Source: Paecilomyces variotii
Taxonomy: Eukaryota
Assembly (NCBI GenBank): GCA_004022145.1
Contig: RCNU01000003.1
Strand: one strand, 5' to 3'
Length of the DNA: 64,000 nt
In this document: one piece after another, positions 8,860-57,640 of the stretch
Layout of the letters: every line of letters begins with the position of its first letter
How positions within the stretch are numbered: the first letter of the stretch is position 1
Notes under the pieces: generated by a model
Seen by the model: only the letters and a program-made list of their open reading frames with translations
Databases searched by the model: none
Told to the model about the DNA's origin: nothing
Program-made: the position numbers and the translations under genes

Positions 8860-9050
8860 CATTATCCAGATCCCCGCGAGTTCTCGTTCATTTCCGCTGT
8901 CTCTCCGCGTCCCAAACGGGAAAGGCGGGGGTCCATCGCGGAAACAAACCGCCCGCGCTTATCGCCGGCTATTTCCATCCGGAGACAACCACCATCGTCA
9001 TCTTCTATCAGAGTCTCACTGTATCGCATGGAAAGAAGCGGATATTTGAA
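8860..9050. promoter_or_regulatory. Divergent fahA/hmgX promoter with a CGG/CCG cluster
   Basis: TCCCCGC 8871, TTTCCGC ~8891, ACGGGAAAGGCGGGG ~8916, GCGGAAAC ~8938, GCGGATAT ~9038, between head-to-head genes. Confidence 0.4.
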
Positions 9051-9269
9051 ACAGGTTATCCACGGATGAGACTTGGCAGCTAGGGATGGATGATACAATG
9101 ATCCGTCTTCACGGGACTTTGTTATCTTCCTGACTAGCTCTAGAACAGCTCTCTCACATTCTCAGAATACCTAAACTAACACAATCCTCATAGTTCCATT
9201 TATATACACTTAAGAATAAGATCAACTGCATCATCCAGGAAATCTCGAACAAAAGCTCCAAAGACCGCC

Positions 9270-9998: not shown

Positions 9999-10216
9999 GA
10001 AGTACGAGTCTAATAGCCTAGGGTTTCGGTTGGCATGGAGCCATGGCGTTCTTTACGTGAGTGATATTACAGGAAAGCCATTTGCGTATACAGTTAACGA
10101 TGATTCAAGATACTTGGTAGATTGATTCATCGATGAAATACATACACATAATTTCATACTTCACATCCTGGCTATATCGCTCCTGCAAGGGAACTTACAG
10201 AAAACTGGTTAGATAC

Positions 10217-11780: not shown

Positions 11781-11999
11781 GTTGTCTGTTTCCTGTTTTA
11801 GACTGTTTGGGATTGTATAGTTCAGCGCTTGTTGACAGCTGCTCGCTTCTCAAAACATATATCCTTATAACGAAGGGCGTTGACCAAAGCTCTCCCTTCT
11901 GGTATACCAACTACCCTAGCAAAGAAGTCGAAGAAGACCCTTATCTCTAAATCAAGCCGTCTCCATCACTCCCTCTACCACTCCCAACGACCTCACCCC

Positions 12000-12250
12000 A
12001 GACGATCCGGGGAAGAAGTGCGGGGAACGCGGAATAAGGCGGAAATCTGACCGCGGACAACAGCGGAATCCGGGGCTGGCCTTCCGCTATGCAAAATATC
12101 CGTCGACAACCGAAGAATCCCAGAAAATGAGCAAAAAGGGTCAATCTAGAAGCCATGGATTTTCTTTGTTCGTTAAGAAGATCAGCAGGCTAGGAAATAT
12201 CCGCGAAAAGCCGCCTCCGACGCTTGCCGCTATCTAGATGGGCGGATAAT
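12000..12250. promoter_or_regulatory. Divergent hmgA/hppD promoter with dense CGG repeats
   Basis: CCGGGGAAG 12007, GCGGGGAAC 12020, GCGGAAT 12029, GCGGAAAT 12039, GCGGAC 12053, GCGGAAT 12063, TTCCGC ~12082, GCGGATAA ~12242. Confidence 0.45.
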
Positions 12251-12485
12251 TTCCCTATACGCTGTGCTGAGAGGCTTACCACTATGATGAAATGAGAATT
12301 CCCTGTTCCAACCGCAGAGTGCGTAATGTAATCATTTTCGATATTGAAATGGAGGATGTTTAAAAACCTGAGTTATCGTCTCTTGTTGAGAAGTGGCCTT
12401 GCAGACATCGGTGATCAACTGTTCGACGGTTTAGTCTCAATTGAATATTCTATACAAACTAAACATATACTTTTGACACTCAATT

Positions 12486-13874
<1,389 letters not shown>

Positions 13875-32700: not shown

Positions 32701-34999
32701 AGGACGAGTGGTTTTGATACCGTGGCGTACGATACGAGGGTGGTTAAGTTACCTGGGGGCGAAGGTGCAGAAAATGGCCACCCGCGCTAAGCAAGCCGAC
32801 GACGATACCGAGGGACAGGTTCTTGTGCCTCAGCGTGAAGGAGGTGGGGAGGGCGGTAAGGCACTAGTGCTAAGCCCATGGGTCTGGTCGGGTCCGGCGA
32901 GTTCTGGCTGCTCCCTTGGGGAGAAACTCCCGATGTACCCCGTCGGTCCGTCAGTACCGTTATTTATTTCCGTCATAACATACCGTATTTTTACCGGTCT
33001 GTTTCCGTCGTGCTCCGTTACCGTCTCCATTACATTACATACAGTACATACTTACAGGCTATGGTAAACCAGGTAAACCATAGTCTGGTCGTAGCGAGGG
33101 AAACTAGAGTACTACTAGTTACTGGTATCTAGTCTACCATACGGCCTACGCAGGAGTGGGGAGCAGCAGATGCCTTCTTCTCTCCTACGGCATATTCCCG
33201 GAGGATCAGCTTCACCACTACGGAGTACTTTGCTCCTTGCCTGGTTCCCGCTCCTTCTGAGCAGTGAGCACACCGTTCAACGAAGATAGATACTCCAGAG
33301 ATGGTCGTGTAGCTGAAACGCAGTCTCCTGCTCTCTTGTATAGTCGCACATGAGACCAGTGGCTGTCAGCGCCCCGTCGTCCAGAATTGTCACATTGCTG
33401 TTTCCGCCGTTGGCTACGACTCGTTCATCCTGCGCGGAATAGGATAACTAGATAGCCACTGCACTGCGCCTGTCTGCTACCAGCGTAACTGAACTTTACT
33501 GAAGCGATTATTTGCTGGGCATCATCCGATGGCTTGTTTCGGCTGCCGAACTCATGAGCCACAACGATCCAACGGTTCCCCCGGATTTTTGATGGCTGAA
33601 CTCTTGTCTCCAGTGGCCAACTCCACGATGATCCTCACCTATCACGGATGCCTTTGTCGCCTCGTTCTCTCCTCGTCCGGCTGAATGGAGGAGGTTGAGC
33701 TGGAGTTCAAGTTACAGAGTATGTACTATTGTGCAGTAATTCTCATTCTACCGCGTCCAGGACAGAACATGATCTACTTTTAGCCTGGACTTCTCACGGA
33801 CGAGTCAGGGGTGCCTTGCTGCGGGGATCGCAGGAGAGGCTTTCCGATCTAAAGATCGTCCGCTCCTGGAACACTTCATCTTCACCCAGATGCCGATCCA
33901 TCTCTTGAGGCTGTCATTGTTCTTGTCATGAGACCGTTTGCGATCCTTCGTTGATGAGTTGTCCAGGCCCATTAGGTCATGTTGCAATATCCCCGTGCGA
34001 TGCCTCGCAGATCCCTACCTACCAGCTGGATAAAAAAAGAGATAACCATGTAAACACGAGATCTGCAATATCTGTCCGTTTCTAAAGTTGGACTGATACA
34101 CGACTCGATAATGGGATGCGTGGCTGGCGAGTGTTGTTACTACTGCAGCAGCACTGCTACTAAACGGCCGACATGTTCTGAAGAATAACGTTGAAGCTTG
34201 TGATCACGTTGTCACGGGGCTGCGCGTGACCCTCCAGCTTTTCTCTTTAAATCCCCGCAAACAGTCAAAGCAGCTATCGATGGCCTGGACGCAACGAGAT
34301 AGAATTTGCACTCTAAAAACACTCGAGGGCGAATTACTGTATAAAGAGAAGAAAAATTCGAAGACGATTCTAGCCGTGAGGCTATGCGCCATTTATCTCA
34401 ACAAGCTCAGACGCTCGCCAAAGGTTTAATGCTTTAACTATACTATTTAGGAACTAGTGCAAACTAGCTTAATATACTAAGCCAATAATATTTAAGCGGC
34501 TATATTAAACCCAATATAATAGTCACAAGAAAATTCTTTAGTAAGCGTCTGAGAATAAATAGTTATAATTTGTTAATAAAACTTACCAATTTCACCCTCT
34601 TTAAATAGTATTATTAAACTTCAACAATAAATAACTCTACTAATTATTAACTAATTTAATTAGAGTTAAATATTATAGATTTAGCTAGTAATTATCTATT
34701 GATTCATATATATATTAAGATATTAAGATAATTTGCTGATATCGAGTTATCGCGTTAAAGTATTTAGGTTAGATTTTATAAAAGCTCACCATTAACCTCT
34801 AGGCTATTCTAAAGACTTAATATCGCTTAAACATATTATCTAACCTTATATCTGAACTTCCGCAAATTCTTAAATTAATAAATAAGATTATTTTAAACCT
34901 CTATAAACTCCTAGGCCATATAGTAAAAAAGGAAAAAATAAAGGAGAAAGATAAATAAAGTTGATAATATAAATTTTATAAAAATATATAACTTTAAAT

Positions 35000-37400
35000 A
35001 GCAATAAGAGATTCCTTTACTTTAATATTAGCTAAAATACCTAAGATAAAGCTTAATAACTTACTATTAGTAATAAAGGCTTTTATTAAAGAAGATAATA
35101 TCCCTCAGCAGTATTATATAATTGAAGCTTATCTAAAATATATACTTAAAGAGATAAATCTAGTATCTAGGCATTCCCTATATCTAGAATAGATTTGAAT
35201 ATTTTGTTGACTAATATATAGCTATAATAATACTCTTCTTATTATATAGATAAGATTTAGAAAGAGTCTTATTCTTTATTCTTTCTCAATTTTAATAGGG
35301 AAGATAACTCTTTAAATAATCCCTCTAAATAAGCTTGCTAAGGAGCAAATATAAGATATTAAAAGGCTCTATAAGATAAACCTATATATTATTAATAATA
35401 AGACTAAATAATAGAATTAAGATCTTATTCAAAATATTAAAGCTAGCATATATATATATATACTTCTGAGCCCTAAATAAGCCATATTGAAAGTCTTCCT
35501 AAATATATTATTAAGGCCAAAAATATAAGCTAGAATTAGTCTTATAACAATTAATAAATGCTATCTTATTATATAATAGGAGATATTCTAACCTAAATTT
35601 ACTATATTAGGCAAATTATAATTGCTTTTAAAATAGAATATTATTTAATTTAGCTATTCTATAATATTTATTAAAGATAAAAAGAAAGCAATTATTTAAA
35701 GAGCTGGCTTTAAAGCTATTAGAGATTAACCCTATTAAATAAAAATTATTTGGACCTCTATTAATTAGAAGAATATATTTATTTATATCCTACCTATTCT
35801 ATATAGGAAGTTATCTTCTTTTAAGGCATTATACTTCTTTTTAAATAATGCTGTTAAAGATAATAAAGCAATACCTAAATAAATATTAAAAACAATTATC
35901 TTTATAAATAATATTTAGAAGATTAAAATAGCAATAGAATATTTTTATTAAATACTTTTAATAAAGACTACACTATTATCATCTAACCATCAGTATTTAA
36001 AGATAAAAGACAGCCTTTATTCAGTTAATTTAGTGATCTAGACCTTTATTTTATATATTTCATCTTATAACTAAGGGATTTATTTTAATAAATTTAAATC
36101 TGCTTTATCAAAAATACGCATTATAATAACAATAACCGCCCTTAGAATAAGAATTAATATACCTAATATTAAGCATATTATTAATTAGAAGTTCCCAATT
36201 AGTTTAGATATCTATAATATCTAGTAATAAATAAGATATAATAGCCATAAAAAGGGTTAAATAAGTAAAGATTATATTATACTTCTATATTAGATATTTA
36301 ACTTAAAGAATATAGATAGACTTAAGAAGCAGATATTATTTCCTATAATTATTTAAACTCTAAAGCTATAGTCTTAATATACCTAATTAACTAAGTCAAT
36401 TATATTAAAAGATATTAATAATACTAAAAGCATCTTATTATTAATCTTTATAAGAAGTTAAGATCTTATACTTAAAAAGAGATATTAGAATTAAAAAGAG
36501 ATAGAAACTTAATCTAAACTTCCTAATTATTAGAAGCAGATTATTAATAGGCCTTATTATTAGAAAGTATTTCTATCTTATCTAGGTAAGAATAAGATAT
36601 CCCTATATATTAAAATATTACTCTTATTAGCATAGGATTATTATAATAAATATAATCTATTATAGATCCTAATATTTATTATACCTTTAGAGGAAGAAAA
36701 ACCTATAAAGAAATTATATAACAGAAGTCGCGCAGGTATTATACTAGAATTATTTAATTAATAGGCCACTTTATAAGTAGAGTTAATATATCCTTACCTA
36801 AATTAATATTTCCTTATAATATCTACTATTTTTATAAGCCAGGACTACTAATAGCAACTATCAGCCTTATATAGCTTAAAAAAGATAACCTTTAATGCAG
36901 AGTTTAATAAGCTTATTATATAAGCTCTATTAGTTAAAAAATAGTGATTTAAAGAATAGTATAATAATAATTTAATCTAATAATTATAATATATAGTTCA
37001 GAAAATTAATAATCTATATATAATAAGGAGGTTAGCTTAGATTTAAAACCAGAACTAGCAATATAAAGATATTTATTAGTCAGATATCTCCCTTAATATA
37101 AGAGAAAGATATGCCAAGTTTATTTAACAGAAAGATAATTCTCTTACTATATAATTAATAAGATAAACTACAGCTAAAAAATTATAAGCAGAATATTTAA
37201 TCCCCTGCTTATTAGTTTAGATACTAATAATATTATTACAAGAAATATCTCTAGAGCTATATAAATTAAATAGACTAGGTAATTTATCAAATAGATTAAC
37301 TAAAGGGACAGCTAATATATAAATTAAATCATTATCTCTTTTAAGGACCCCTTCTTAGAAGAGATAGATTAATTAAATATTAGAAACTCTAGTTAAGCAA
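35000..37400 (+). pseudogene. RIP-destroyed RecQ-like SF2 helicase of the element (copy 1)
   Basis: Reversing C>T/G>A with both copies gives motif I LLIAQTGFGKSL (~35235-35270), Ia IIPLNKLAEEQ, II IDECHLVxQWExFRPEF (~35550-35600), III FGCSATL, IV KTIIFVD, V VATTALGMGIDxPD (~36125-36170), VI IWQRIGRGGR (~36220-36250), then Cys pairs resembling the RecQ Zn module. Ends approximate. Confidence 0.85.
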
Positions 37401-37575
37401 TAACCTTTATAAGAATAGAGTCCTAATAAAAAGCTTATATAAATGCTTATAATAAAAAATAAAAGGATTAAGACTTTAATAATAATTAAGAGAGAGAACT
37501 TTTTAATATTAAAAGAGTAATAATATAGATATTAGGATAAAGAGTCTTATTAGGATATATCTAAACTTATGCCAG

Positions 37576-37655
37576 CTTTTAGATTATCTTAAAGACTTTT
37601 AGATTATCTTAAAAACTGCTAGATTATTCTAAGAATTACTGGGTTATCCTTAGCC
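37576..37655 (+). repeat. Four degenerate 20-bp tandem repeats inside the element
   Basis: Unit ~CTTTTAGATTATCTTAAAGA. The same array is in copy 2 at ~52757-52842, with a 6-bp insertion. Confidence 0.7.
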
Positions 37656-38099
37656 AATAAAAATATATGTTTATATAATATAATATAATAGATTCACTAA
37701 ATATCAGCTTTATTTAAGTAGAAATAAATATGCCTATATAATTCTAACCCCTTCTCTTTTTCTTTAAAATAATAAACTTTAAGATAGCCTGCTCTCCTAT
37801 AATTTAAGTATTTAGCTATCCTATTATAGTCTCTTTTAATAAGAGAGATATACTAGCTGCTATTATAATAATTCTAAGAGAAGCTCTCTAATTTAAAGTA
37901 GAGCCTTGCCTTTTCCTATATAAATATATTAGCTCCAGATATTATTAAATAAGACTAATATATCTAATATCTAGCCCTCCTCTCCTACCTTATCTTTATT
38001 AGTTAGTTAAAATAATAGCAGATTAGCAGAGTTAGAATAGAATAATTAAATATATAATTTAGCCCTCCCCTATCTCTAAGTCTACTGTTACCTACCCTC

Positions 38100-38830
38100 T
38101 TGCTATTATTAAAAAACCTACTACAGATTTTTAATCTACTTTTTATAGCTAAAATAAACTATAATAATAATAATAATAATAATTTTGCTGGGCCTATTTT
38201 AGATAATAATCTAGAGATAGTTCTATAAGTAATAATACTATTAAAAAAGGATAGATACTAATATATTTATAATAAAACTCTATCCTTAATACCTATAATT
38301 TTTATTATTATAACCCTATCTTCTCTAAATATTATTATACCTGCTCTTAGTCTTATATAAAAATAATATAATTAGTCTTAAACAGCCGATTAGCCATATT
38401 TACCTTAAATATAGACCCCCAGAGATAAAATAATAAAGGCATATACCCCTATAGCTATTAGGAAGTGGTAATCCTTTAGATAAAAAGACTTAGAATATTT
38501 TAACCCTAACAAATAGTATGATATTGGTTATATCAGCTATATTATAGAGACCAAGTTAGGTAAATAACTCTTTAAGAAAGATAGATATATAGCCTGCCAG
38601 CTTTATAATAAAAAATATTAAGTCTATTCTATAAAGGATGCCTAATAGATATATAGGCCTAAGGATACCTATATTTACTATTGTTTAGCTGCTTGCGCTA
38701 AAGGCTATAGCTTAAATAAGCAATATAAATAGGCCCTCTTATTACTACTGCCCCTTCCTTAAACTTTATTATTAAAAAGGGGTCCTCTTTTTAATACTAA
38801 TAGCAATATTATTATAGTTTAATAAGTACT
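38100..38830 (+). pseudogene. RIP-destroyed third ORF: acidic tract + Zn2Cys6-like six-cysteine motif (copy 1)
   Basis: One frame has (AAT)n at 38163-38183 (RIPped poly-Asp). From 38586 it reads TAT-x2-TGC-x6-TAT-x17-TAT-x2-TAT-x8-TAT, which de-RIPs to C-x2-C-x6-C-x17-C-x2-C-x8-C, in context METKLGE..CxACQ...ECWVYSxKGAQQ..RPGDTCxxCRLAARAKGCS. Five of the six Cys are inferred from TAT<TGT. Confidence 0.55.
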
Positions 38831-38865
38831 AATATATGATTTAAGTTAGGTATACTCTATCTACC

Positions 38866-39101
38866 AATTGCTCTACTTTATAAGTAAGCTTTAACCAGGT
38901 CCTTAATAATCAGTAGGCTATATAGCCAAATACTTTAAGATATTCTAGAAGGGCCTAATTATAAGTATTAATTAGTAATATAATAATTTTTATATTAATT
39001 GCTCTATTTTATAGATAAGCTTTAATTAGATCCTTAATAATTAATAGGCTATATAGCCAAATGCTTTAAGATATCTTAAAAAGGCCTAATTATAAGTATT
39101 A
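38866..39101 (+). repeat. ~105-bp direct repeat (period 131 bp) between ORF3 and the transposase 3' end
   Basis: AATTGCTCTA...GGCCTAATTATAAGTATTA at 38866-38970 and 38997-39101; also present in copy 2 (~54053-54288). Confidence 0.8.
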
Positions 39102-39449
39102 GCTATTATACTATATCTATTAGGCTGAGTTAATATTAATAAATAAAAGGGGGGAGGATATTAAAATCAGACTCTATACTTTTATATAATAATACCTAGG
39201 CAATATAGTCTAGAGCTAATCTAGAGCATAACTAAATAAAGATATAATTAGTTTATTAGAATAGCTAATATAGACCCTCTTATATTATATTTTACCTTAT
39301 TTTATATATAGAGCTCTTTAATTAAATAATATATATTAAGCCTCTTATTATTAAATCAGGAGTTTAAGAAAATAAATAATTATATGCTTTTTATATATTA
39401 ATCTCTTAATACTAGCTTAGGAGTTTTAGGGACTTAAGGGTTATATATT

Positions 39450-42400
39450 TTATTATATATTAACCCTCTTATTAGCCTAGATCTTATAAGGAATAAATAG
39501 ATTATTAATAGGTTATATACTCCTCTAATATTAAATACTTAAAGCTATATTATTAATAAGGATACTATTATAGCATTTATTAATAATAATAATATATTCA
39601 TAGATATTCTACTTAATACTATTATTATTAGTAGACTATATATTAGCAATTATCTCTATATAATAGATATAGTTATTATTAAACTAATTAACCTTCTTAG
39701 CTAATTATTCTATTCTAATCTATATTATATCTTCTGAGTTAAATAGAGCTAAAGAATCAGGGAGATATTTAAGATCTCTTAATATAGTAAGATTCCTAAT
39801 TAATAGATTTTAAGCTAATAAAAATATCTTATCTAATATAAATACTATAATATGCAAATTAGGCATATATTAACTAAATATAGACTTAAGCCTTTCTTAT
39901 AGACTCTATATCTAGATATTTATTAAGCAAATATAGTTAAAGCTAATATCTATATTATATATAGAATTCTAATATATCTTTATTTTAATTTTATAGTTCA
40001 TATTAAGATATTTAAGACCAAGATCAATAGCTTTAAAATAAGCTGGCTTGCCTTACTAATTAATAAGACTTAACACTAGAATAGCATATTATAGCTCTAG
40101 ATTATTAATTAATAATAGATTCTATTAGTAATATAGTATTTTATTACTATAATTATATTGGGATGCGCTAAAGAAATAGATAATTAATAGGTTAACTAAG
40201 TAATAAAGAAGCCTAATATTACTATATTTAATAGCATGCCGGACAGTAAGAAATAACTTAATTTCCTGTAATAGCCAATACATTAAATAAAATCTAATAT
40301 CCTAGATAGGTTGTTTTATATAAGGATTAACCCCCTCCTATACTTTAAGTATAAATACTATAAGTTAAATATCTTTAACAAACTGTAGGTAATCTATAGT
40401 TGCTAAGATACTAATTACTTAATTATATTTTTGCTATTTTTTAAGATAGTTATCTATAATAGTTATAAGATACCTCCTATGCTGCATTAAATAATAGAAT
40501 AGCACTAATATTTAGGTTAAAAAGTTCTATAAAATAATTAATTCTAATTAATAATATTTTAGGCTCTTTAGATTCATTTAGCTACATCCCCATATAATAA
40601 TATCAGACTTAATACAGTAATATACTTCTTAACCAGATATTATAGGTATAAAATATATCTGTATTATTATATTTAATAGATTTAATTAGATATAGAACTA
40701 TATAGGAACTTTAAGAAGCTATTATCTTTAATTATAAGGCAACTTAATATATAATTACTTAATTTATATAGTTTAGATATACTCTACAATAAGTTAATTA
40801 TTATAGATAAGCTAGAGGCGTATATTAAAGTTATTAGGCTTTCTAGGCTCTTAAAAAGTATATAGGTATAACTATTAAAAAAAGATATTATTATGAATAC
40901 TATAAGTCCCAGTAATAGTTCTTTTATCTTTAAATATTACCCTAAATTGCCAGAATTACGTCCAGCTTAAAATAAAGTAATTTAATTCTAGTATAGAAAA
41001 TATCATAGATTTAAATAATTAAAATATTTTTTTAATAGAAGATAAATATATCTTTATAATTATATTTAATATAAGAAAGGTAGATATACACTTCTCTATA
41101 CTATTATTATCACCATATATTGCTAGGGATTTGATAATATTATAGAAATTAAGAAGAATAGCTAGATTATACATATTTTAAGATAGGCCTAATACTAAAA
41201 TATTAGGGTATATTATAATTGCAGCTATTATAACTATATATATTATAGCTTTATACCTAAGGATTTTATTATATATTATTTCTTTAAAATTTATATTATT
41301 ATAGATTATAATACTCTATAAATTCTTTCTTAAAATCGGCAGATATAATTATAATTAATATTAGTTACTGCCCTTAAATTATCTAAGAGTTTAAAAGTCT
41401 TAATAAAAGAACCTAAGAGTAAAAAAAAGTTTATAAAAATATAAAATTAATAGGATATAGAATATTATAATAGAAATTAAGCTATCTTTTTATAGTCTAT
41501 TATCTATTTTATTAAGTAATTCTCCTATATATAATTATAGTATAATTTAAGCCCCAATAAAGTATCTATAACTTAATACTTTATTCTTAAGCCTATTAAA
41601 TAGGCATTAAGTATTAAAAATAAATAGTTTAACTATTTTATATAGTAAGAATAATAAATTATATTAATAATAATAAACAGCTGCTGCTAAAGACCTTCTC
41701 TATTATACTAATTAATATAACTTATCTAATAGGCACAGTGATTTCTTATTATATTATAAAGAAAGGTATATAGCCTAGGTATAATATTTTAAATAATATT
41801 AAAGATAGTATTAAAGTTAATATCTTTTAGCAGAGTAATATAATTAAATTTGCTAAAATATAATTATTTAACTAGCTTATTAAGCTTTGCCTTAGCTATT
41901 AAAGCCAGGTTATAGTGATTAATAATCCTTAATATTCCTTTTAATATCTCTTGCCAGGCATAATATTATTATTTATAAGTATAATAGCAATAATGCTAGA
42001 TCTCTGAAAAATATATAATTTATATATATATAAGCTGTTTAAAGCTCTAATAAGATTTATATAGATATTTAATAAAGTTCTTAAGTCTCTATTAAGTCTA
42101 GAATATTAACTATCTATTTAAATTATCTATATTAAATATATTAAGATTATTATCCTTTAGCTTATTATAGCCCTCTCTAGACTTATTTATATTAATTTTA
42201 AAATTATTTAGCAAAATAATTTCTATAAAAGATAAGAATAAGCAATTTAAAAATATATTAAATAATAATAATTTAAGATATTACTCTTAAGATATTTCTA
42301 TATAAGATTAGGGCTTTATATTAGATATTAGTAAAGCAGGAGATTAAAATAAATTAATTAAGCCTATTTTTAACCTAAATAGATATAATTCAAGATATAA

Positions 42401-42450
42401 AATATTGTATTAAAGATTAATAATTAATTTATATAAGGTTAGTTAATTAT
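39450..42450 (-). pseudogene. RIP-destroyed Academ-type (DUF6589) transposase (copy 1)
   Basis: De-RIP translation gives YDNINF (~41285-41305), HGDQLTVERIR (~40775-40808), WLLGVPAWFHIQxN (~40683-40722), AVKHGDIGLL (GDIG at 40212-40223), FFGASQHNYGNEML, AILASGLVNWQGK..FKAIDLGLEHLN (~40002-40090). These are the DUF6589 blocks in the expected order. Ends approximate. Confidence 0.85.
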
Positions 42451-44306
42451 CCCTTATAAATTGCAATTAATTATTTTCAGACCCTTTATAAGATTTTTTA
42501 CTATATAGTCTGCTATTAGTCCAGGAGCTAGTAGGTATATTTTATATTATATTATTAGCTTAGTTGTTTAATTATTGTGCTAATACAGGCTATTGCAGCA
42601 AAAAGCCCACCCACAGGGGGGGCACCTCACTAGAGGGTCTGAGCTTGCTGAGATAATGCGCCATGTGCCTTTTCGAAACGCGTCGTCTAGAAAGATGTCA
42701 TCAAAAAAGCTCCATCTACGGTCTAGAGCGTCGCGGCCGCATGCCTAGGAGGATAACAGATATGTTATAGACAAGAAAATAATAATAATACTATCGGAGA
42801 ATCTATCGTTTTGACATGGTGAGGCGTCATTGTTTCCTCTTTACGAAGCAGGGATTCCTTTACGTGCCGTGCTCTTACATGCTCTGCTGTCGACTCCCCT
42901 ACCGCTTCCGTACCCCCGAAGCCGAGGGGATAGTTGACAGTAGAACCGAATCGCTCACCGCCAGACAGTATCGCCAACGATGCACTGGGAACAATAATAA
43001 TGGCCACATGGTCTTGTGCGCATAACCATGCTCATCATCGACCAGGGAGTCTTACGTGCGTCGAGATCTGGTTTCCTGCGACCAGCAGCAAAACTATCTA
43101 CTCCGTAATCATGTCAAGTACCGCTGCCACTACCGCGTGTAGTATGGAATAAACAGGCGACCGTTCAACCGTGAGCATACTTTAAGCTAATAACATAGAC
43201 AGTCGGATTAACCCAACGGTTCACTCCTTATATTTCAGAATACGAGATATATTGCGTCAATCGATGCGCTCATTTTTCTACGCCGATCCTTTCTCATGGT
43301 CTCCCACTTTTGACGGACATGGGTCCCTGATAAAACATCCTAGCATTACCATAGTTATCTTATACTTTCCTTACGTTCACGAACTCCAACAAGGACCCGA
43401 TCGAGATGCTCCGTGCTGAACAGTTCGAGCAGCTGAACATGGGCCCTGGACGCTGCGACACACGTCCACTTTAGATCCCATAATTACCCCGTCTCGCGCT
43501 TGCAAGTCATGCCCTCCGTAATAACATCGGATTATTCCTCATTATGGACAAGGTGCGGAACATCAACTGTCAACTGAGTTACGAGTTGGTGTGCGGAAAT
43601 CGCCCAGTTGGAACATGAGACAGTCGTTCCTCCAACGGCGTAGATATTCTGTGGGTCCTGGGTTTCGAGACGTCTCCTTCCCTTTGTGGTAACTATTGCT
43701 TGACTTTGGCAGTTTACGCTTTTTGGCTTTCTTCCCGACCGAAAGGAGACTGAGGAAAACAGGGCTGAGACTACTACGGGGGAGTTCATACTAATAGAGA
43801 ATGCTCGCGCGTTTCTCAACAGTTCGCGGCTACTAGTATCTTTTCCTCTTCACCAACAGGTCGCCGTTGTCTCGTCCGCCTCAAATCCAGTCTAGCAGTC
43901 TAACGGCCTTTAACCTTGTAAGTAAGCTCGATGAACCGGTGAGGCTCTTTCAAGTGTATATACGTTCACGTTATGTATGTATCCCTTACGCCTCCGAAAA
44001 GCGAGCATAAGACTCATAAACTCCAAGATGGAGCTTGATTGACAAGAACGGTGGATCCTACGTTCAACCAGGCCGTTTATGCTAGCCCGTAGACAGACAC
44101 CATGTGCATACCGGTTGGTTAGTTAGTTCAGTTGCGGCAACCATCATAGCCGCAACTTGCAAGAGATCCCTTGACGAGCGCTCAGTGTCTGTGCGTCATT
44201 AAGTTTTAGTTACTTTTTCTTACATCAACTGAGTCTCGTCACCTGCGATCACGTAGCATTTCGCCCAACCTCTCGAGTATTCTTTCTTTATCTCAAGAGG
44301 CTGGCA

Positions 44307-47400: not shown

Positions 47401-49679
47401 TCCGGTTATTTAGATTCTTTACCCCCTTGAGTCTTTTGTCACGCTTATCTTGAACCTGAAGTCGGTGGCTATCGCAACATTATTGAGGAGACAGTAGGTG
47501 GCTAGTTGGACAACCGCGAGTCCGGAGTATGCCACTCCAACGCAACACAGCGTCCGACCTCAACACAAAACACGCGTCTCGAACTCCGAATATGTCCCCG
47601 CAAAGACAGCAAAACTTGTAATGGTTATTCCTGATCTAATTCCCGTAGACTCATCGAGACCATCAATTATCAAAGATAGAAGTCCTTCCCAGTTGACCGG
47701 TAAGCTTATCCACATGGGGATCGGGAACAACCGCAGGGCACGGACCGTCAGATACTCCTGACAGGCTCCGCCGCAATATCAATGAGTTATTCCAAATAAT
47801 GTTAGCAGTAGGCGTAGTACCCTAACCAGGGTCCAGGACCACATTCTTTCTCTCAAGTTCCTGACTAGGTAGTGTTGGACATGTGAACTGGCACCACGTT
47901 GTTATAGAACATGTCCATGTCCCACTCTGCTGGGGTATGTCCGACCCAGCCACTTTGAGGCAGATTAATGAGTTGCTAACTACTCCGTACTTCCCAAGCT
48001 ACTACGTCTTGGGAGCTGTATACTACAAACAGGAAGGGGTTTGAATTAGAATTGATTACGAATCGAAACGTTCGTCACGGTCACAGATCTCTCCAGACAG
48101 AATCTATACGCGTCATCTATGTTTTCTTCGTCACCATTTAACTCGTACTATCTGTGGCGCGGGTTCGGTGTACAAATGTACGTATGTACATACATGTACC
48201 ATCCGCTGCAAGCACGTTGCGGTCAGCTGGATCGGCTCGTCTCGCACAATGGCGCCAGCCACATGGCAGTCGCCCGATCCTGCCAGTGTCAACATGATCC
48301 TTTGCATTTTTCGCTTCTACTACAGTAGGATCCGTGTGGTTTCACGGACTAGTCGCATCTGATGTACAGTAGAATGAGCTCCATGATACCTCGGTCCTGT
48401 AAAATATCACTATTGCACGGTCGGAGAATAGCATAAATGTCAAGGATTTAACTACTTGTCACTGTTTTCCGGTCCGGGTAAGTACCTATGTATAGACAAT
48501 ACGCACGTACAGAACAACGTAGTAGTTAGACCCAAGTGTCATTGTTACCTAACTACAAGACCGAACTATTCCGCAGCCCTTCTTTTAGATTAGTTAAGTA
48601 TCATCATTAATTTATTATCATTTGAGCAGGTTAAAGCAATTAAAAATACCCATGCTCAGATAACCGCCCCCATTTTTCTCAAGTCACGCTCTCTCCCTCC
48701 TGCGCCGCAAAGTTCCTAGGCCCCATCTAGCAGTCAGTGGTCAAGACGACCTTCCTGTTTCAGTCACTACATAACCACACTCAATTTCGAGATCCTAGGC
48801 GCTCAGATATTTCTCGTTTTGAGCTCTCGGCACAACCGACAGGGGTAGATACTTAACTGCTGTTCGGTTACTCTCCCGAGAACACTGTCACCCGCCAGGT
48901 TTGTGCGTCCAATGGCTTTAAAAATGTGCGCGGGAAGAGATGTAACGCATCGATAGTGTCCGTGTCCGTGTCTGTGTATATGTGCTGTCCTATCTACGAT
49001 ACGATGTATCATTGTATTGCTGTTATTGTAGGGATTGCCTTGCTCTAGGTATTCTTGTAATAACTAGATAGTTATCTCAGCAAGCTCAGATGCTTGCTAA
49101 AGGTTTAGTGCTTTAACTATATTATTTAGGAATTAGTGCAAACTAGCTTAGTATACTGAGCCAATAATATTTAAGCAGCTATGCTAAACCTAATATAGTA
49201 ATTGTAAAAAAATTCTTTAGCAAGTATCTAAGAATAAATAGTTGTAATTTATTAATAAAACTTATTAATTTTACCCCCTTTAAATAGTATTATTAAACTT
49301 TAATAATAAATAATTCTACTAATTATTAACTAATTTAATTAGAGTTAAATATTATAGATTTAGCTAGTAATTATCTATTGATTTATATATATATTAAGAT
49401 ATTAAGATAATTTGCTAATATTAAGTTATTATATTAAAATATCTAGATTAAATTTTATAAAAGTTTATTATTAACCTCTAGGCTATTTTAGAGACTTAAT
49501 ATTACTTAAATATATTATTTAACCTTATATCTAAACTTTCGCAAACTCCTAAACTAATAGATAAGATTATTTTAAATCTTTATAAACTCTTAGGCTATAT
49601 AATAAGAAAAAAAAAATAAAGAAAAAAGATAAATAAAGTTAATAGCATAAATTTTATAAAAATATATAATCTTAAATAG

Positions 49680-52580
49680 CAGTAAGGGATTCCTTTATTT
49701 TAGTATTAGCTAAGATACCTAAGATAGAGCTTAATAACTTATTATTAGTAATAAAGGTTTTTATTAAAGAGGATAATATCCCTTAATAGTATTATATAAT
49801 TAAAGCTTGCCTAAAGCATATATTTAAAGAGATAAATCTAATATTTAGGCATTCTCTATATCTAAAATAGATTTAAACGCTTTATTAACTAATATATAGC
49901 TATAATAATTAGAGTGGTTATATAGGCGGTTCGGTTCGGTTCAGGGGGGAGGTTAAACCGCCCGTAGCGGTTTTCGGTTCGGGGCAGATAAACCGTACCT
50001 GAACTGAACCGTATACTGGTGGTTCGGTTTAAAACCAAAAAAACCGGATCGGCATAATTAGTTACTAACCTAAGTTAGATCTAGTTATATAACTATGTTC
50101 TAGCTATATTAGGATAAATAAGCGAAAATTACAATACCGTAATTTACCAATTTCTAATATATTTTTATTATATATACTAAATACTATAGTAATTTTATAC
50201 CTCCGATATAAGTATTGATAAATTATATAGTATAATTTAAATACGAGGTTAAAATTACGGTTCAAATAGTTTAAACTAAAAACCACTGGTTCAGTTTGGT
50301 TTTGGTAGACTCGCACTGCAGTTTACTAGAAAGCGAACCAAACCGAACTATAGGCGGTTCGGTTCAGTTCGGTTCGGTTTTTTCGGTTTACTGTAACCAC
50401 TCTAATAATAATATTCTTCTTATTGCGCAAATAGGATTTAGAAAGAATTTTATTTTTTATTTTTTCTTAATCTTAATAAGGAAGATAACTCTTTAAATAA
50501 CCCCCCTAAATAAGCTTATTAAGGAGTAAATATAAGATATTAAAAGGCTTTATAGGATAAACCTATATATTATTAATAATAAGACTAAATAATAGGATTA
50601 AGATCTTATTTAAAACATTAAAGCTAGTATATATATATATATACTTCTAAGCCTTGAATAAGCTGTGTTAAAGGTCTTTCTAAATATATTATTAAGGCTA
50701 GAGATATAAGCTAGGATTAGTTTTATAGTAATTAATAAATGCTATCTTATTATATAATAAGAGATATTCTAATTTAAATTTACTATATTAGGTAAATTAC
50801 AGTTATTTTTAAGATAGGATATTATTTAGTTTAGCTGTTTTGCAATACTTATTAAAGATAGAAAGAAAGTAATTATTTAAAGAGCTAGCTTTAGAGCTAT
50901 TAGAGATTAATCCTATTAAATAAAAGTTATTTAGACCTTTATTAATTAGAAAGATATATTTATTTATATCCTACTTATTCTATATAAGAAGTTATCTTTT
51001 TTTAAGATATTATACTTTCTTTTAAATAATACTGTTAAAGATAATAAAGTAATACCTAAATAAATACTAAAAACAATTATTTTTATAGATAATATTTAGA
51101 AGATTAAAATAGTAATAAAATATCTTTATTAAATACTTTTAATAAAAACTGCGCTATTATTATCTAACTATTAGTATTTAAGGATAAAAGATAGCCCTTA
51201 TTTAGTTAATTTGGTGATCTAGACCTTTACTTTATATATTTTATCTTATAACCAGGGGATTTATTTTAATGAATTTAAATCTGTTTTATTAAAAATATAT
51301 ATTATAATAGCGATAACCGCCCTTAGAATAAGAATTAATATACCTAATATTAAGTATATTATCAATTAAAAATTCCTAATTAGTTTAGATATTTATAATA
51401 TCTAATAATAAATAGGATATAATAGCTATAGAGAGGATTAAATAAATAAAAATTATATTATACTTCTATATTAAGTATTTAACTTAAAGAATATAAATAG
51501 ATTTAAAAAGCAGATATTATCTCTTATAACTGCTTAAACTTTAAAGCTATAGTCTTAATATATTTAATTAACTAAGTTAATTATATTAGAAGATATTAGT
51601 AATATTAAAAGTATCTTATTATTAGTTTTTATAAAAAGCCAGGATTCTATATCTAAAAAGAGATATTAAAACTAAAAAGAGATAAAAGCTTAATTTAAAC
51701 TTCCTAATTATTAGAAATAAATTATTAATAGGCCTTATTATTAGAAAATATTTCTATTTTATCTAGGCGAAAATAGGATATTCCTATATATTAAAATATC
51801 GCCCTTATTAGCATAGGATTATTATAGTAAATATAATTTATTATAGATTTTAATATCTACTATACTTTTAGAGAAGGAGAAATTTATAAAAAAACTATAT
51901 AATAGAAGTTATATAGGCATTATACTAGAGTTATTTAATTAATAGGCCATTTTATAGGCAGAGTTAATATATACTTACCTAAATTAATATTTCCCTATAA
52001 TATCTATTATTTTTATAAGCTAGGACTGTTAATAATAATTATTAGTCTTATATAGCTTAAAAAAGATAATCTTTAATACAGAGTTTAATAAGCTTATTAT
52101 ATAAGCTTTATTAGTTAAAAAATAGCAATTTAAGGAATAGTATAATAATAATTTAATCTAGTAGTTATAATATATAGTTTGGGAAGTTAATAATCTATAT
52201 ATAATAAGGAGATTAACTTAGACTTAGAACTAGAACTAGCAATATAAAGATATTTATTAGTCAGATATCTCTCTTAATATAAGAGAAGGATATGCTGAAT
52301 TTATTTAATAAAAAGATAATTTTTTTATTATATAATTAATAAGATAAACTATAGCTAGAAAATTATAAGTAAAATATTTAATCCCCTGCTTACTAATTTA
52401 AATATTAATAATACTATTATAAGAGATATCTCTAGAGCTATATAGACTAGATAGATTAGATAACTTATTAAATAGGTTAACTAAAGGAATAGCTAATATA
52501 TAGATTAAACTATTATCTTTTTTAAGGATTCTTTTTTAGAAGAGGCAGATTAATCAGATATTAGAAATTCTAATTAAGTA
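49680..52580 (+). pseudogene. RIP-destroyed RecQ-like helicase (copy 2), split by the MITE just before motif I
   Basis: ATT CTT CTT ATT GCG CAA ATA GGA TTT AGA AAG at 50413-50445 (LLIAQTGFGK). DECH relic at 50734-50745. Colinear with copy 1; ends approximate. Confidence 0.8.
49910..50404. mobile_element. 495-bp non-autonomous hAT-type element (MITE) nested in copy 2
   Basis: Absent at the homologous site in copy 1 (35224-35231). TIR TAGAGTGGTTA...TAACCACTCTA; 8-bp TSD ATAATAAT at 49902-49909 and 50405-50412; subterminal (CGGTT)n/(AACCG)n arrays at both ends; no coding capacity. Confidence 0.85.
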
Positions 52581-53289
52581 ATAATCTTTATAGGAGCAGA
52601 GTCTTAATAAAAGGCTTATATAGATACTTATAATAAAAAATAAAAAGATTAAGATTCTAATAATAATTAGGAGAGAGAACTTTTTAATATTAGAAGAATA
52701 ATAATATAGATATTAGGATAGAGAGTCTTATTAGGATATATCTAAACTTATACTAGCTTTTAGATTATTTTAAAGACTTTTAAATTTAGATTATCTTAAA
52801 AATTGCTAGATTATCTTAAGAACTGCTAAATTATCTTTAGCTAATAAAAATATATATTTATATAATATAATATAATAGATTTATTAAATATTAGCTTTAT
52901 TTAAATAGAAATAAATATGCCTATATAATTTTAATCCCTTTTCTTTTTCTCTAAAATAATAAACTTTAAGATAGTTTATTTTCTTATAATCTGGGTGCTT
53001 AGCTATCTTATTATAGTCTCTTTTAATAAAAAAGATATACTAGCTGCTATTATAGTAATTCTAAAAAGAGCTCTCTAATTTAAAATAAAGCCTCATTCTC
53101 TCCTATATAAATATACTAGCTCTAGATATTATTAAATAAGATTGATATATTTAATATTTAGCCCTTCTTCCCCGCCTTATTTTTATTAGTTAGTTAAAAT
53201 AATAGCAGATTAGCAGAGTTAGAATAAGATAACTAAATATATAATTTAGTCCTTTTCTATCTCTAAGTCTATTATTGCTTATTCTCTTA

Positions 53290-54020
53290 TTATTATTAGA
53301 AAGCCTATTATAGATTTTTAATCTATTTTTTATAGCTAAAACAGATTATAATAATAATAATAATAATAATTTTATTAGGCCTATTTTAGATAATAGTCTA
53401 GAAATAATTTTATAAATAATAATATTATTAAAAGAGAATAGATACTAATATATTTATAATAAAACTCTATCTTTAATATTTATAACTCTTATTATTATAA
53501 TTCTATCTTCTCTAGATATTATTATACCTGCTTTTAGTCTTATATAAGAGTAATATAATTAGTCTTAAACAGCCAATTAGCTATATTTATCCTAGGTATA
53601 AATCCCTAAAGATAAGATAATAAAGGTATATACTCTTATAATTATTAGGAAGTAATAGTTTTTTAAGCAGAAAGATTTAGAATATCTTAATCTTAATAAA
53701 TAATATAATATTAGTTATATTAACTATATTATAGAGACTAAGTTAGGTAAATAATTCTTTAGGGAGAATAAGTATATAGCCTATTAGCTTTATAATAAGA
53801 AATATTAAATCTATTTTATAAAAAGTACCCAGCAGATATATAGGCCTAGAAATACTTATACTTATTATTATTTAACTGCTCGCGCTAAGGGCTATAGCTT
53901 AAATAAATAATATAAATAAGCCCCCTTATTATTATTATCCCCTCCTTAGACTTTATTATTAAAAAGGGGTCCTTTTTTTAATATTAATAATAGTGCTATT
54001 GTAGTTTAATAGACACTAAT
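53290..54020 (+). pseudogene. RIP-destroyed Zn2Cys6-like ORF3 (copy 2)
   Basis: Homologous to 38100-38830 (offset 15187). Motif starts at TAT 53773; retains ACC CAG CAG and GCT CGC GCT AAG GGC. Confidence 0.5.
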
Positions 54021-54639
54021 ATATAATTTAAGTTAAGTATACTCTATTTACTAATTATTCTGCTTTATAAATAAGCTTTAATTAGATTTTTAATAATTAG
54101 TAGGCTATATAGCTAAATATTTTAAAATATTTTAAAAGGGCTTAACTACAAGTATTAATTAGTAATATAATAATCTTTATATTAATTACTCTATTTTATA
54201 GGTAAGCTTTAATTAGGTTTTTAATAATTAATAGGCTATATAGTTAAATACTTTAAGATATCTTAAAAGGGCCTAACTATAAGTATTAGCTGTTATATTA
54301 TATTTATTAGGCTGAGTTAATATTAATAAGTAAGAGGGGGGAGAATATTAAAATTAGATTTTGTATCTCTATATAATAGTACCTGGGTAATATAGTTTAA
54401 AGCTAATCTAAAGCGTAGTTAAATAGAGATATAATTAGTTTATTAAAATAGCTAATATAGACCCTCTTATATTATATTTTATCTTATTTTATATATAGAG
54501 CTCCTTAGCTAAATAATATATATTAAGCCTCTTACTATTAAATCAGGAGTTTAGGAGAGTAAATAATTATATGTTTTTTATATATTAATCTCTTAATATT
54601 AGCTTAGGAGTTTTAAGGACTTAAGGATTATATATTTTA

Positions 54640-57600
54640 TTATATATTAACCCTTTTATTAGCCTAGATCTTATAGGGAGTAAATAGATTATTAGTAGGT
54701 TATATACTCCTCTAATATTAAATACTTAAAGCTATATTATTAATAAGGATATTATTATAGTATTTATTAATAATAATAATATATTTATAGATATTTTGCT
54801 TAATATTATTATTATTAGTAAACTATATATTAGCAATTATCTTTATATAATAGATATAGCTATTATTAAACTAATTAACCTTTTTAGCTAGTTATTTTAT
54901 TCTAATCTATATTATATCTTTTAAGTTAAATAGAGCTGAAAAATTAGAGAGATATTTAAAGTCTTTTAGTACAGCAAGGTTTCTAATTAATAGATTTTAA
55001 GCTAATAAGAATATCTTATCTAATATAGATACTATAATATGCAAATTAGGCATATATTAACTAAATATAGACTTAAGCCTTTTTTATAGACTCTATATTT
55101 AGGTATTTATTAAATAAATATAGTTAAAGCTAATATCTATATTATATATAGAATTCTGATATATTTTTATTTTAATTTTATAGTTTATATTAAGATATTT
55201 AAGATTAAGATTAATAGCTTTAAAATAAGCTGGCTTGTCTTGCTAATTAATAAGACTTAATATTAGAATAGTATATTATAGCTCTGGATTATTAACTAAT
55301 AATAGATTTTATTAATAATATAGCATTTTATTACTATAATTATATTAAGATATATTAAAGAAATAAATAATTAATAGGTTAACTAAGTAATAAAAAAGCC
55401 TAATATTACTGTATTTAATAATATACTAAATAGTAAAAAATAATTCAATTTCCTGTAGTAGCTAATATATTAAATAAAATCTAATATCCTAGATAGGTTA
55501 TTTTATATAAGGATTAACCCCCTCTTATACTTTAAATATAAATATTATAAGTTAAATATCTTTAATAAGCTGTAAGTAATCTATAGTTACTAAAATACTA
55601 ATTACTTAATTATATTCTTACTATTTTTTAAGATAATTATCTATAATAGTTATAAAATATTTTTTGCGCTATATTAAGCAATAGAATAGTGCTAATACTC
55701 AGGTTAAAAAGCTTTATAAAATAATTAGTTTTAATTAATAATATTTTAGGCTTTTTAGATTTATTTAGCTATATCCTTATATAGCAATATTAGACTTAAT
55801 ATAGTAATATACTTTTTAACTAGGTATTATAAATATAAAATATATCTATATTATTATATTTAATAGATTTAATTAGATATAGAACTATATAAGAACTCTA
55901 AGAAGCTATTATCTTTAATTATAAGGTAACTCAGCATATAATTATTTAGTTTATATAGTTTAGATATATTCTATAATAAGTTAATTATTATAAATAAGCT
56001 AAAGGCATATATTAAAATTATTGGGCTTTCTAGGCTTTTAAGAAGTATATAGATATAATTATTAAAAAAAGATATTATTATAAATATTATAGGTCCCAGT
56101 AATAATTCTTTTATCTTTAAATATTACCCTAAACTGCTAGAATTATATTTAGCTTAAGATAAGATAATCTAATTTTAGTATAAAAGGTATTATAGATTTA
56201 AATAATTAAAATATCTTTTTAATAAAAGATAAATATATCTTTATAATTATATTTAATATAAGAAAGATAGATATATACTTCCTTATATTATTATTATTAC
56301 TATATATTATTAGGGATTTAATAATATTATAGAAATTAAGAGGAATAGCTAGATTATATATATTTTAAGATAAGCCTAATGCTAGAATATTAAGATATAT
56401 TATAATTATAGCTATTATAACTATATATATTATAACTTTATGCCTAAGGATTTTATTATATATTATTTCTTTAAAATTTATATTATTATAGACTATAATA
56501 TTTTATAGGTTTTTTTTTAAAATTAGTAGATATAACTATAATTAATATTAGCTATTACTCTTAAATTATCTAAGAGTTTAGAAATTTTAATAAGAGAATC
56601 TAAAAATAAAGGGAAGTTTATAAAAATATAAAATTAGCAAGATATAGAATATTATAATAAAAATTAAGCTATTTTTTTATAATCTGCTATCTGTTTTATT
56701 AAGTAATTCCCCTATATATAATTATAGTATAATCTAAGCCCCAATAAAGTATCTATAATTTAATGCTTTATTCTTAAGCTTATTAAGTAGGTATTAAGTA
56801 TTAAAAATAGGTAGTTTAATTATTTTATATAATAAGAATAATAAATTATATTAATAATAATAAATAGCTGTTATTAAAGACTTTCTCTATTATACTAGCT
56901 AGTATAACTTATCTAATAGGTATAGTAATTTCTTATTATATTATAAAGAAAGGTATATAGCCTAGATATAATATTTTAAATAATATTAAAAGCAGTATTA
57001 AAGTTAATATCTTCTAATAGAGTAATATAATTAAATTTGCTAAAATATAGTTGTTTAATTAGCTTATTAAGCTCTATCTTAGCTATTAAAGCTAGGTTAT
57101 AATAATTAATAATCCTTAATATTTTTTCTAATATCTTTTGCTAAATATAATATTATTATTTATAAATATAGTAGCAATAATACTAGATCTCTAAAGAATA
57201 TATAATCTATATATATATAAGCTGTTTAAAGCTCTAATAAGATTTATATAGATATTTAATAAAGTTCTTAAGTCTCTGCTAAATCTAGAATATTAATTAT
57301 CTATTTAAATTATCTATATTAAATATATTAAGATTATTATTCTTTAGCTTATTATAGCCCTTTTTAGACTTATTTATATTAATTCTAAAATTATTTAGCA
57401 AGATAATCTCTATAGGAGGTAAGAATAAGTAGTTTAAGAATATATTAAATAATAGCAGTTTAAGATACTGCTTTTAAAATATTTTTATATAAGATTAAGG
57501 CTCTATATTAAATATTGGCGAAGTAGGAGATTAAGATAAATTAATTAAGCCTATTTTTAACCCAAATAGATATAATTTAAGATATAAAGTATTGCGTTAA

Positions 57601-57640
57601 AGATTAATAATTAATTTATATAAGGTTAGTTAATTATCTC
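54640..57640 (-). pseudogene. RIP-destroyed DUF6589/Academ transposase (copy 2)
   Basis: Homologous to 39450-42450; GDIG relic at 55399-55410. Ends approximate. Confidence 0.8.

Follow-up and report, generated by a model that had tools for sequence, protein, structure and literature searches.

What two long AT-rich islands in the genome of the mould Paecilomyces variotii once were is the question raised by the locus described here. The window, by which the whole stretch of analysed DNA is meant, comprises 64,000 nucleotides of contig RCNU01000003.1 (GenBank assembly GCA_004022145.1). Its background lies at about 48% guanine plus cytosine (GC), and two stretches of about 20% GC form colinear direct repeats that are separated by only 6.4 kb. 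Very probably, each island arose by its own insertion of a cut-and-paste transposon, both from a single family of the AcademH type (Academ, helicase-encoding), and repeat-induced point mutation (RIP) later inactivated the two. The two copies take up the following positions:

34393..42656, plus strand: copy 1 of the element, 8264 bp, in helicase-to-transposase orientation, RIP-degraded
49072..57843, plus strand: copy 2 of the element, 8772 bp with a nested insert counted in

The GC content is 0.16-0.26 inside 35001-42000 and 49001-58000, against about 0.44-0.58 in the flanks. In a MAFFT alignment of the two copies, 7286 of the 8263 paired columns are identical (88.2%). The differences comprise 976 transitions and a single transversion, and the alignment contains three indels of 503, 6, and 1 bp. 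The TpA/ApT ratio amounts to 1.27 and 1.29 in the two copies (0.78-0.85 in the flanks), and the ratio (CA+TG)/(AC+GT) amounts to 0.65 and 0.43 (1.05-1.12 in the flanks). The dominance of transitions, the excess of TpA, and the depletion of CpA and TpG are the signature of RIP. An earlier note on this DNA had described two colinear copies of about 8.3 kb that are bounded by inverted repeats at their termini (TIRs) and by duplications of the target site (TSDs) and are missed by the track of open reading frames (ORFs). This description holds, and none of the 15 ORFs of at least 180 aa in the window lies within either copy. Among the residual C/T differences between the copies, 251 stand before T and 156 before A; the preferred CpA sites may already have been mutated in both copies.

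The genes of the islands become legible through intact relatives. A word-indexed search with copy 1 retrieves an un-RIPped homologue (P0001, E 2e-55) that carries the Pfam family DUF6589 at 245.6 bits. P0001 has 113 protein relatives, all with DUF6589, and the six that bear organism names all belong to Ascomycota. An alignment of 27 of these relatives (A1) was used to fetch 52 metagenome loci. In the intact loci, an upstream ORF of about 300-390 aa and a DUF6589 ORF of about 600 aa are convergent with an ORF of 930-1070 aa that contains the DEAD and Helicase_C domains. Hidden Markov models (HMMs) derived from the ORFs of intact relatives place all three genes on both window copies, each in a single frame, and tblastn with the relatives agrees with this map (E 2e-48 for the helicase of copy 1):

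35028..37022, plus strand: copy 1 helicase pseudogene (RecQ-like superfamily 2, SF2), HMM-supported at 35028-36332 (252 bits) and 36480-37022 (E 9e-5); by extrapolation, the whole gene would span about 34870-37660
38364..38720, plus strand: copy 1 third ORF (ORF3) pseudogene of a six-cysteine domain family, HMM E 1.4e-9, tblastn E 1e-9, 12 in-frame stops
39558..41333, minus strand: copy 1 transposase pseudogene, DUF6589/DDE core, 383 bits with the relatives' HMM, in one frame
41486..41905, minus strand: copy 1 N-terminal part of the transposase (upstream ORF or exon in relatives), HMM E 3e-18
50410..51513, plus strand: copy 2 helicase pseudogene, main part, HMM 196 bits; a weak N-terminal piece (E 0.63) lies at 49700-49897, ahead of the nested insert
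53695..53910, plus strand: copy 2 remnant of ORF3, weak (HMM E 0.018), colinear with copy 1
54745..56517, minus strand: copy 2 transposase pseudogene, DUF6589 core, HMM 312 bits
56667-57086, minus strand: copy 2 N-terminal part of the transposase, HMM E 2e-18
38852..39113 (copy 1) and 54039-54295 (copy 2), no strand: two tandem units of about 131 bp

The raw identity of the window genes to an intact relative is 26-36%. When codons are reversed by T>C/A>G, the relative's residue is recovered at 67-83% of the aligned positions, whereas the equally free change T>G/A>C recovers 29-45% and C>T/G>A recovers 28-38%. The decoding of the islands by reversal of RIP, which the earlier note had proposed, is confirmed by this test, and the HMMs bear out its three genes with their strands and their order on both copies. 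The note had also called for a de-RIP consensus. Since the majority of RIP sites have mutated in copy 1 and copy 2 alike, a two-copy consensus that takes the C/G allele at each difference was used solely for comparing profile scores. All four profiles score higher on it (helicase 288, ORF3 43, transposase core 436, and N-terminal part of the transposase 77 bits); its GC content is still 27%, and no ORF exceeds 75 aa. Both copies are dead, since catalytic residues are changed and in-frame stops occur throughout the genes. The tandem units of about 131 bp separate ORF3 from the 3' end of the transposase gene and have 81-84% similarity to each other. This duplication is older than both insertions, as it is present in both copies.

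The transposase gene is the part of the element that can be recognized most directly. In Pfam searches of the raw translations, in which stops were read as X, DUF6589 (PF20231) is found on the minus strand of copy 1 at 39990-40367 (41.1 bits, E 1.2e-10, cut-off 27), and copy 2 reaches 22.5 bits (E 5.5e-5), which is under the cut-off. The motifs YDN, GDQLT, AWFH, GDIG, NYGREM, and LEHLN of the intact family appear at the aligned places of the window in the RIP-altered forms YNN, NNXLI, IXFY, SNIR, NYSNK[I/M], and LKYLN. The claim of a DUF6589 transposase on the minus strand is thereby upheld. The catalytic residues are all changed in both copies (D>N, D>N, and E>K), and the core contains 39-48 in-frame stops. 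In an alignment of 81 relatives (A4), 14 columns are invariant, which include the G-D of GDQ, the H of WFH, and the D/E of DLxLE.

An AF2 model of the transposase core from one intact relative (L001), built on 90 aligned sequences, is confident (pLDDT 88.4, pTM 0.90). When the structures on Foldseek's list are superposed with VIA-align, the model matches Hermes at Z 9.2 (root-mean-square deviation 6.3, 275 aligned) and the P element transposase at Z 8.4; Transib (Z 5.9) and RAG1 (Z 4.9) follow in lower rows, and unrelated proteins score about 2.3. DSSP places D17 of the model on the first long strand and D187 behind the strand 182-186; D444/E448 stand at the start of the helix 443-461, beyond a long helical insertion. 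The predicted architecture is that of a DDE transposase with an insertion domain, in which an RNase H fold is split by helices.

The second gene would encode a helicase. In the window, the counterparts of its motifs I, II, III, V, and VI have RIP-altered forms (GFRKS, NKCY, S[IA]I etc.), and in the intact relatives they read GfGKS, DeCH, SAT, LGmG..pD, and WQrlGRaarG. In-frame stops number 30-32 across the copies, with 32 in copy 1. Among solved structures, the best matches of the relatives' helicases are WRN, RecQ, RECQ1, RECQ5, RECQ4, and BLM, with E values from 2e-20 (WRN, RecQ) to about 1e-8 (BLM), and the alignment to WRN and RecQ is restricted to the DEAD/Helicase_C core. The NCBIfam model for the RecQ family (TIGR00614, recQ_fam) scores 100-124 bits in all four relatives' helicases that were compared and does not reach its cut-off of 219.8. 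RecQ proteins possess accessory domains, namely a zinc-binding/RQC region and HRDC. These were not found in nine helicase ORFs or pieces searched against Pfam, in which just DEAD, Helicase_C, ResIII, and Cas3-like_C_2 appear at E<=0.001. By curated thresholds, the protein is best described as a RecQ-like SF2 core that would fall outside the RecQ family. Of the proposed RecQ helicase on the plus strand, the strand, the RecQ-like core, and the motifs stand, and the family name does not.

The arrangement of the two large genes is constant among the relatives. ORFs with both DEAD and Helicase_C that are convergent with the transposase are found in L003, L012, L014, L016, L023, and L025, and cut or shorter helicase ORFs with Helicase_C only are found in L015 and L043. 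Each of the 22 loci in which both genes are visible has the helicase as an ORF of its own on the opposite strand.

The third gene, ORF3, lies between the transposase and the helicase on the helicase strand in 12 of these 22 loci; in the other 10, the helicase adjoins the transposase. An ORF3 match is found in 24 loci, and in 23 of them it is on the helicase strand. In L007 (3612-4151), ORF3 is located on the transposase strand instead. On a quick transposase tree, the presence of ORF3 needs three changes, so the three-gene form is common without constituting one clade; rows affected by RIP distort this tree. The window rows cluster in it with other low-GC, RIP-affected rows of atypical composition, and no nearest relative was taken from it because the composition of the window rows is unlike that of the others. 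Two further layouts were seen. In the intact relative L003, the transposase and ORF3 stand apart by an additional stretch of about 4 kb (3619-7698) that holds several ORFs and may be captured cargo. The distant relatives L043 (1104-6184, 5.1 kb) and L047, with 25-30% transposase identity, are short two-gene elements without ORF3. L043 still terminates in TTACCTCAGCAAGCTCAGG, and the terminal sequence is thus conserved well past protein similarity.

The conserved core of ORF3 reads KWW..HIGRIMETELG..C-x2-C-x6-C-x17-C-x2-C-x6-8-C and contains six invariant cysteines. The cysteine spacing of Zn2Cys6 clusters is CX2CX6CX5-12CX2CX6-8C; both halves of ORF3 fit this spacing, and its X17 linker exceeds the range of 5-12. 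Zn_clus (PF00172) remains below its 21-bit cut-off in all six relatives' ORF3 proteins (best 13.4 bits, E 0.085). Among 45 members of the ORF3 family that were scanned with Pfam, 42 carry no family at all, one carries a partial Zn_clus (24.9 bits), and none carries a helicase domain, which makes ORF3 a gene of its own. Among 1.84 billion, the ORF3 profile finds 322 cluster representatives (50% identity) at E<=1e-3; with the threshold tightened to E<=1e-10, 176 remain. The domain is modeled confidently (pLDDT 90.0, pTM 0.81, 89 sequences). Foldseek returns no match to this model at E<=0.001 (best E 3.2), which does not equal a new fold, and Pho7, Hap1, and Gal4 among its first 20 rows are insignificant at E 3-7. 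In a wide VIA-align search, one of 48,161 chains reaches Z>=2 (best Z 2.1). The label "Zn2Cys6-like" given to this gene before can be kept as a description of the cysteine spacing, as which it would not amount to a family assignment; the Zn_clus scores and the fold searches do not support the latter.

A second lead concerns DUF3716 (PF12511), which scores 13.3-14.4 bits in three of the six ORF3 proteins and does not reach its cut-off of 22. In the ESM Atlas, the clusters closest to ORF3 in language-model features are ascomycete ones (score 0.91), and DUF3716 is carried by 28% and 90% of their members. The connection is weak and can serve as a lead only. Two DUF3716 genes are described from the Zymoseptoria tritici element REP9, a DNA transposon of IS3EU-like type (PMC8232023). 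As reported there, REP9 resembles the present element in being a multi-gene ascomycete DNA transposon of about 8 kb with small cysteine-rich accessory genes, but it differs in its unrelated rve/IS3EU transposase, its 6-bp TSD, and its lack of a helicase (PMC8232023). Tentatively, and at less than even odds in our judgment, ORF3 may represent a non-incidental, unnamed, structurally novel six-cysteine (probably zinc-binding) accessory family of ascomycete AcademH-type elements, maybe distantly akin to the DUF3716 genes of REP9.

Whether the islands were mobile is answered by their ends. Each copy carries TIRs of about 20 bp (TTATCTCAGCAAGCTCAGAC). Both copies start with TTATCTCA[A/G]CAAGCTCAGA... 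and finish with ...TCTGAGCTTGCTGAGATAA, which is the reverse complement; in each copy, 19-20 of the 20 outermost nt are complementary. The ends and their duplications are located as follows:

34393..34416, plus strand: copy 1 left TIR, whose TTATCTCA...TCAGAC terminus recurs in relatives
42633..42656, minus strand: copy 1 right TIR
34385..34392, no strand: copy 1 left TSD, TGCGCCAT, 9 bp if the A at 34384 is counted
42657..42664, no strand: copy 1 right TSD, which matches the left copy and the empty-site joint
49064..49071, no strand: copy 2 left TSD, CTAGATAG; its right copy is at 57844-57851

An A precedes the duplication in both copies, (A)TGCGCCAT in copy 1 and (A)CTAGATAG in copy 2, and this A could equally end the element. 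The TSD is given as 8 bp, possibly 9, because a symmetrical TIR would claim the shared A; a reading of 10 bp is excluded in both copies. The TTATCTCA...TCAGAC terminus is found upstream of the transposase in many relatives. Both ends are present in five relative loci (L017, L021, L027, L028, and L043), four of which include both flanks, and all four have TSDs. Together with the window copies, the 8-bp duplication is seen in six of six complete elements, exactly in copies 1 and 2, L021, and L028 and with transitions in L017 and L027. The ninth letter at the left flank is A in five of these six elements and G in L017; it is A in just one of nine relatives with the left end only.

Contigs of four public sequencing runs (X1, X6, X9, and X12) were aligned to 33400-43700. 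In two of the four, one long contig each (33.6 kb in X9 and 13.5 kb in X12) joins 34383 to 42656 and omits 8272 nt (34384-42655), with nine letters that fit either side of the joint. The skipped length corresponds to the element together with one of the two duplicates, which identifies the joint as an empty site. A further 208 to 602 contig pieces, 90-99% alike, align to the same region including the element in X1, X9, and X12 and differ nearly always by transitions, which indicates that many RIP-mutated copies exist. In these three runs, the depth over the element is several-fold that of the flanks; this depth adds up every similar contig and does not give a copy number. The copies were thus mobile in the past, and filled and empty sites are polymorphic among isolates. 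In X6, a run guessed to be RNA, contigs within 33690-34512 reveal that the flanking gene has an intron at 33719-33966 (GT..AG) that is spliced, and one contig runs from the flank into about 120 nt of the left end of copy 1, stopping at 34512. X6 covers the flanks and contains no contig over the remainder of copy 1, which is not evidence of silence.

With anatomy, homology, a TSD of 8 (possibly 9) bp, the empty site, and the RIP signature demonstrated, the class of the element is what has to be weighed. The AcademH lineage of the Academ superfamily reportedly goes back to Kojima's 2020 article in Mobile DNA 11:15. The assignment to it is made because Academ-like transposase motifs are combined with a separate helicase gene. 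The consensus of the RNase_H_Academ HMM published by Muszewska et al. 2017 (PMC5751038, Supplementary File 1) was compared with the family by eye and qualitatively, over four motifs and their spacing:

Motif 1: Academ HMM 2-6, fDNwD; family, YDNxN
Motif 2: Academ HMM 186-195, vvltGDQply; family, LVHGDQLT
Motif 3: Academ HMM 220-225, gfFHie; family, AWFHIQ
Motif 4: Academ HMM 447-457, vhlDealEqli; family, IDLGLEHLN

The key residues are spaced as D3-D191-H223-D450/E454 in the Academ consensus and as D17-D187-H222-D444/E448 in L001. For four motifs in the same order with matching spacing, coincidence appears unlikely. The AcademH assignment of the earlier note fits this comparison and the separate helicase gene. 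AcademH elements, as far as their published descriptions extend, share with the present element a DDE transposase, a separate helicase gene, TIRs, and a fungal range that includes Ascomycota; the TSD is also long and in this unlike the 3-4 bp of AcademX (PMC10045372). ORF3, which lies between the genes in the relatives noted above, may set the present element apart from AcademH, and the RIP-dead state of the window copies does.

Several points weigh against this assignment or parts of it. Only 8 bp of the TSD (9 at most) are unambiguous, against the 9-10 bp reported for AcademH (PMC10045372), and its length is at or just below that range. The first motif interval differs, with 170 residues against 188 in the Academ consensus. 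The Academ link consists of four motifs and their spacing as judged by eye and not by a score. Foldseek reports nothing for the transposase model at E<=0.001, and its Hermes and P-element rows have E values of 0.13-0.3 (best Hermes 0.13). The helicase call depends on the profiles of relatives, because the raw plus strand yields no Pfam family in six of six frames across both copies.

The alternative that survives best, although its chance is slim, is that DUF6589 elements form a separate superfamily, for example one related to hAT or P, that merely resembles Academ at a few motifs; a superfamily of this kind, with a helicase, would be new. In structure, the model does match hAT (Hermes) and P-element transposases best, and they have the architecture predicted here, in which a large insertion of helices divides the RNase H fold. 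The TSDs of hAT and P elements are 8 bp long, as here, and the Academ match is one judged by eye. Against such a kinship, there is no sequence-level family match to hAT or P elements: a Pfam scan of P0001 finds no hAT, P, or other transposase family besides DUF6589, and the Foldseek E values are those given above. To our knowledge, hAT and P-element transposons carry no helicase gene. The four motifs stand in the same order and at near-identical spacing to the published Academ consensus, and the 14 invariant columns of A4 include conserved positions of that consensus. The distribution of DUF6589 also mirrors the one reported for Academ and AcademH (PMC10799480, PMC5751038).

Still less probable is a KolobokH element, the other fungal DDE lineage with a RecQ helicase. 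Kolobok elements duplicate the 4-bp target TTAA, but the TSDs here are 8-9 bp long and of varied sequence. KolobokH is described as exclusively fungal and as encoding a RecQ helicase, which the RecQ-like helicase here would suit; in that description the helicase follows downstream of the transposase domain (PMC9587614), whereas each of the 22 loci here has it as a gene apart from the transposase, convergent with it and on the other strand. The four motifs of the catalytic region match the Academ consensus. At the conserved AWFH site, to which this comparison is confined, an A stands three places before the H, so that the site is not the C/DxxH signature listed for Kolobok (PMC9587614). Lastly, the idea that the islands are a RIP-degraded segmental duplication of a host gene cluster that was never mobile, for which one could cite the two nearby direct copies and the fact that RIP hits any duplication, has practically no chance, since it is refuted by the precise empty site in other isolates and by identical TIRs with a separate TSD for each copy, and it sits equally badly with the further similar contig pieces in three of four runs and with the same gene set and termini on 52 unrelated metagenome contigs (five with both ends, four of these with TSDs).

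On the AcademH-type reading, an intact element would be about 8.2 kb long, with TIRs of about 20 bp and three genes. The first would encode a DDE transposase of about 950 aa with a DUF6589 core and, as in hAT and P-element transposases, an RNase H fold with a helical insertion. The second, on the opposite strand, would encode an SF2 helicase of about 930-1070 aa with a RecQ-like core, and the third, downstream of the helicase and on the same strand, a small protein with the conserved six-cysteine domain. The transposase would bind the TIRs and cut and paste the element. The helicase may aid the unwinding or processing of DNA at excision or integration, and ORF3 may be a zinc-binding accessory factor that binds nucleic acid or protein. 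After RIP, neither window copy is capable of acting.

The family is widespread in Ascomycota. The large DUF6589 clusters of the ESM Atlas that come nearest occur most often in Basidiomycota and Mucoromycota. AcademH is reported in low copy from Basidiomycota, Ascomycota, and Mucoromycota (PMC10799480), and Academ in fungi is characterized as "low copy, in most taxa" (PMC5751038). By their titles and abstract openings, the listed papers on Academ and Aspergillus describe no Eurotiales family, and a literature search for DUF6589 found no transposon context. The suggestion that the element is an undescribed subfamily is nevertheless doubtful in view of the 113 protein relatives, the 52 metagenome loci, and the report of AcademH from Ascomycota (PMC10799480). 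An AcademH-type element is expected in this host group, and the novelty is modest; it consists in the tie of DUF6589 to Academ, in the duplication's length of 8 bp, and perhaps in the conserved third gene, which is structurally unmatched.

The surroundings of the islands contain ordinary genes of a fungus, namely ankyrin NLR-like, PNP_UDP, fumarylacetoacetase, GST, HPPD-like, and DUF3295 genes. The flanking DUF3295 ORF shares 94% identity with a protein of Paecilomyces variotii and 74% with the next match, from Thermoascus, which confirms the host as a member of Eurotiales, as had been supposed from the sequence. At 6209-13145 lies a cluster of tyrosine-catabolism type, which comprises a GST (maleylacetoacetate-isomerase-like, 6209-6883), a fumarylacetoacetase (7400-8716), and an HPPD-like ORF of glyoxalase fold (12486-13145). 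Within 2-4552, an ORF of the PNP_UDP phosphorylase superfamily lies on the same strand as, and next to, a long ORF with ankyrin repeats and a match to the GPI-inositol-deacylase winged helix; this region resembles a fungal NLR-type gene split by introns. The insert in copy 2 is an element of its own:

49910..50404, no strand: nested 495-bp non-autonomous element in the copy 2 helicase, TIRs TAGAGTGGTTA.../...TAACCACTCTA

It is flanked by an 8-bp TSD, ATAATAAT, at 49902-49909 and 50405-50412 and contains subterminal repeats of the GGTTCGGTT type. It has 35% GC and is less affected by RIP than the element around it; it may be hAT-like.

RIP has been demonstrated by experiment in P. variotii, in which regions of about 20% GC make up 8.5-13.8% of assemblies (PMC6300479). 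The sole source named in that paper for the low-GC islands is Tn123, a Tf2-type retrotransposon, and the word "helicase" is absent from its main text (PMC6300479). The islands described here resemble those of Tn123 in the kind of host, in their GC content of about 20%, and in their origin by RIP, but their progenitor is a DNA transposon and not a retrotransposon. Some of the islands of about 20% GC in a Paecilomyces-like mould thus receive a concrete DNA-transposon progenitor, and heavily RIP-mutated DNA proves to be annotatable by profiles from intact environmental relatives. The polymorphism of filled and empty sites can be used as a strain marker. Knowledge of how such transposons work is unchanged by these results. 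The conserved third gene, with its confident model and unmatched fold, is of biochemical interest, and a kinship of ORF3 with DUF3716, if true, would point to an accessory module that is shared across superfamilies of fungal DNA transposons. For the protein family itself, motif and fold evidence ties Pfam DUF6589 to the Academ transposase; if this is true, DUF6589 would be the Academ transposase domain, and a family of "unknown function" would gain a name.

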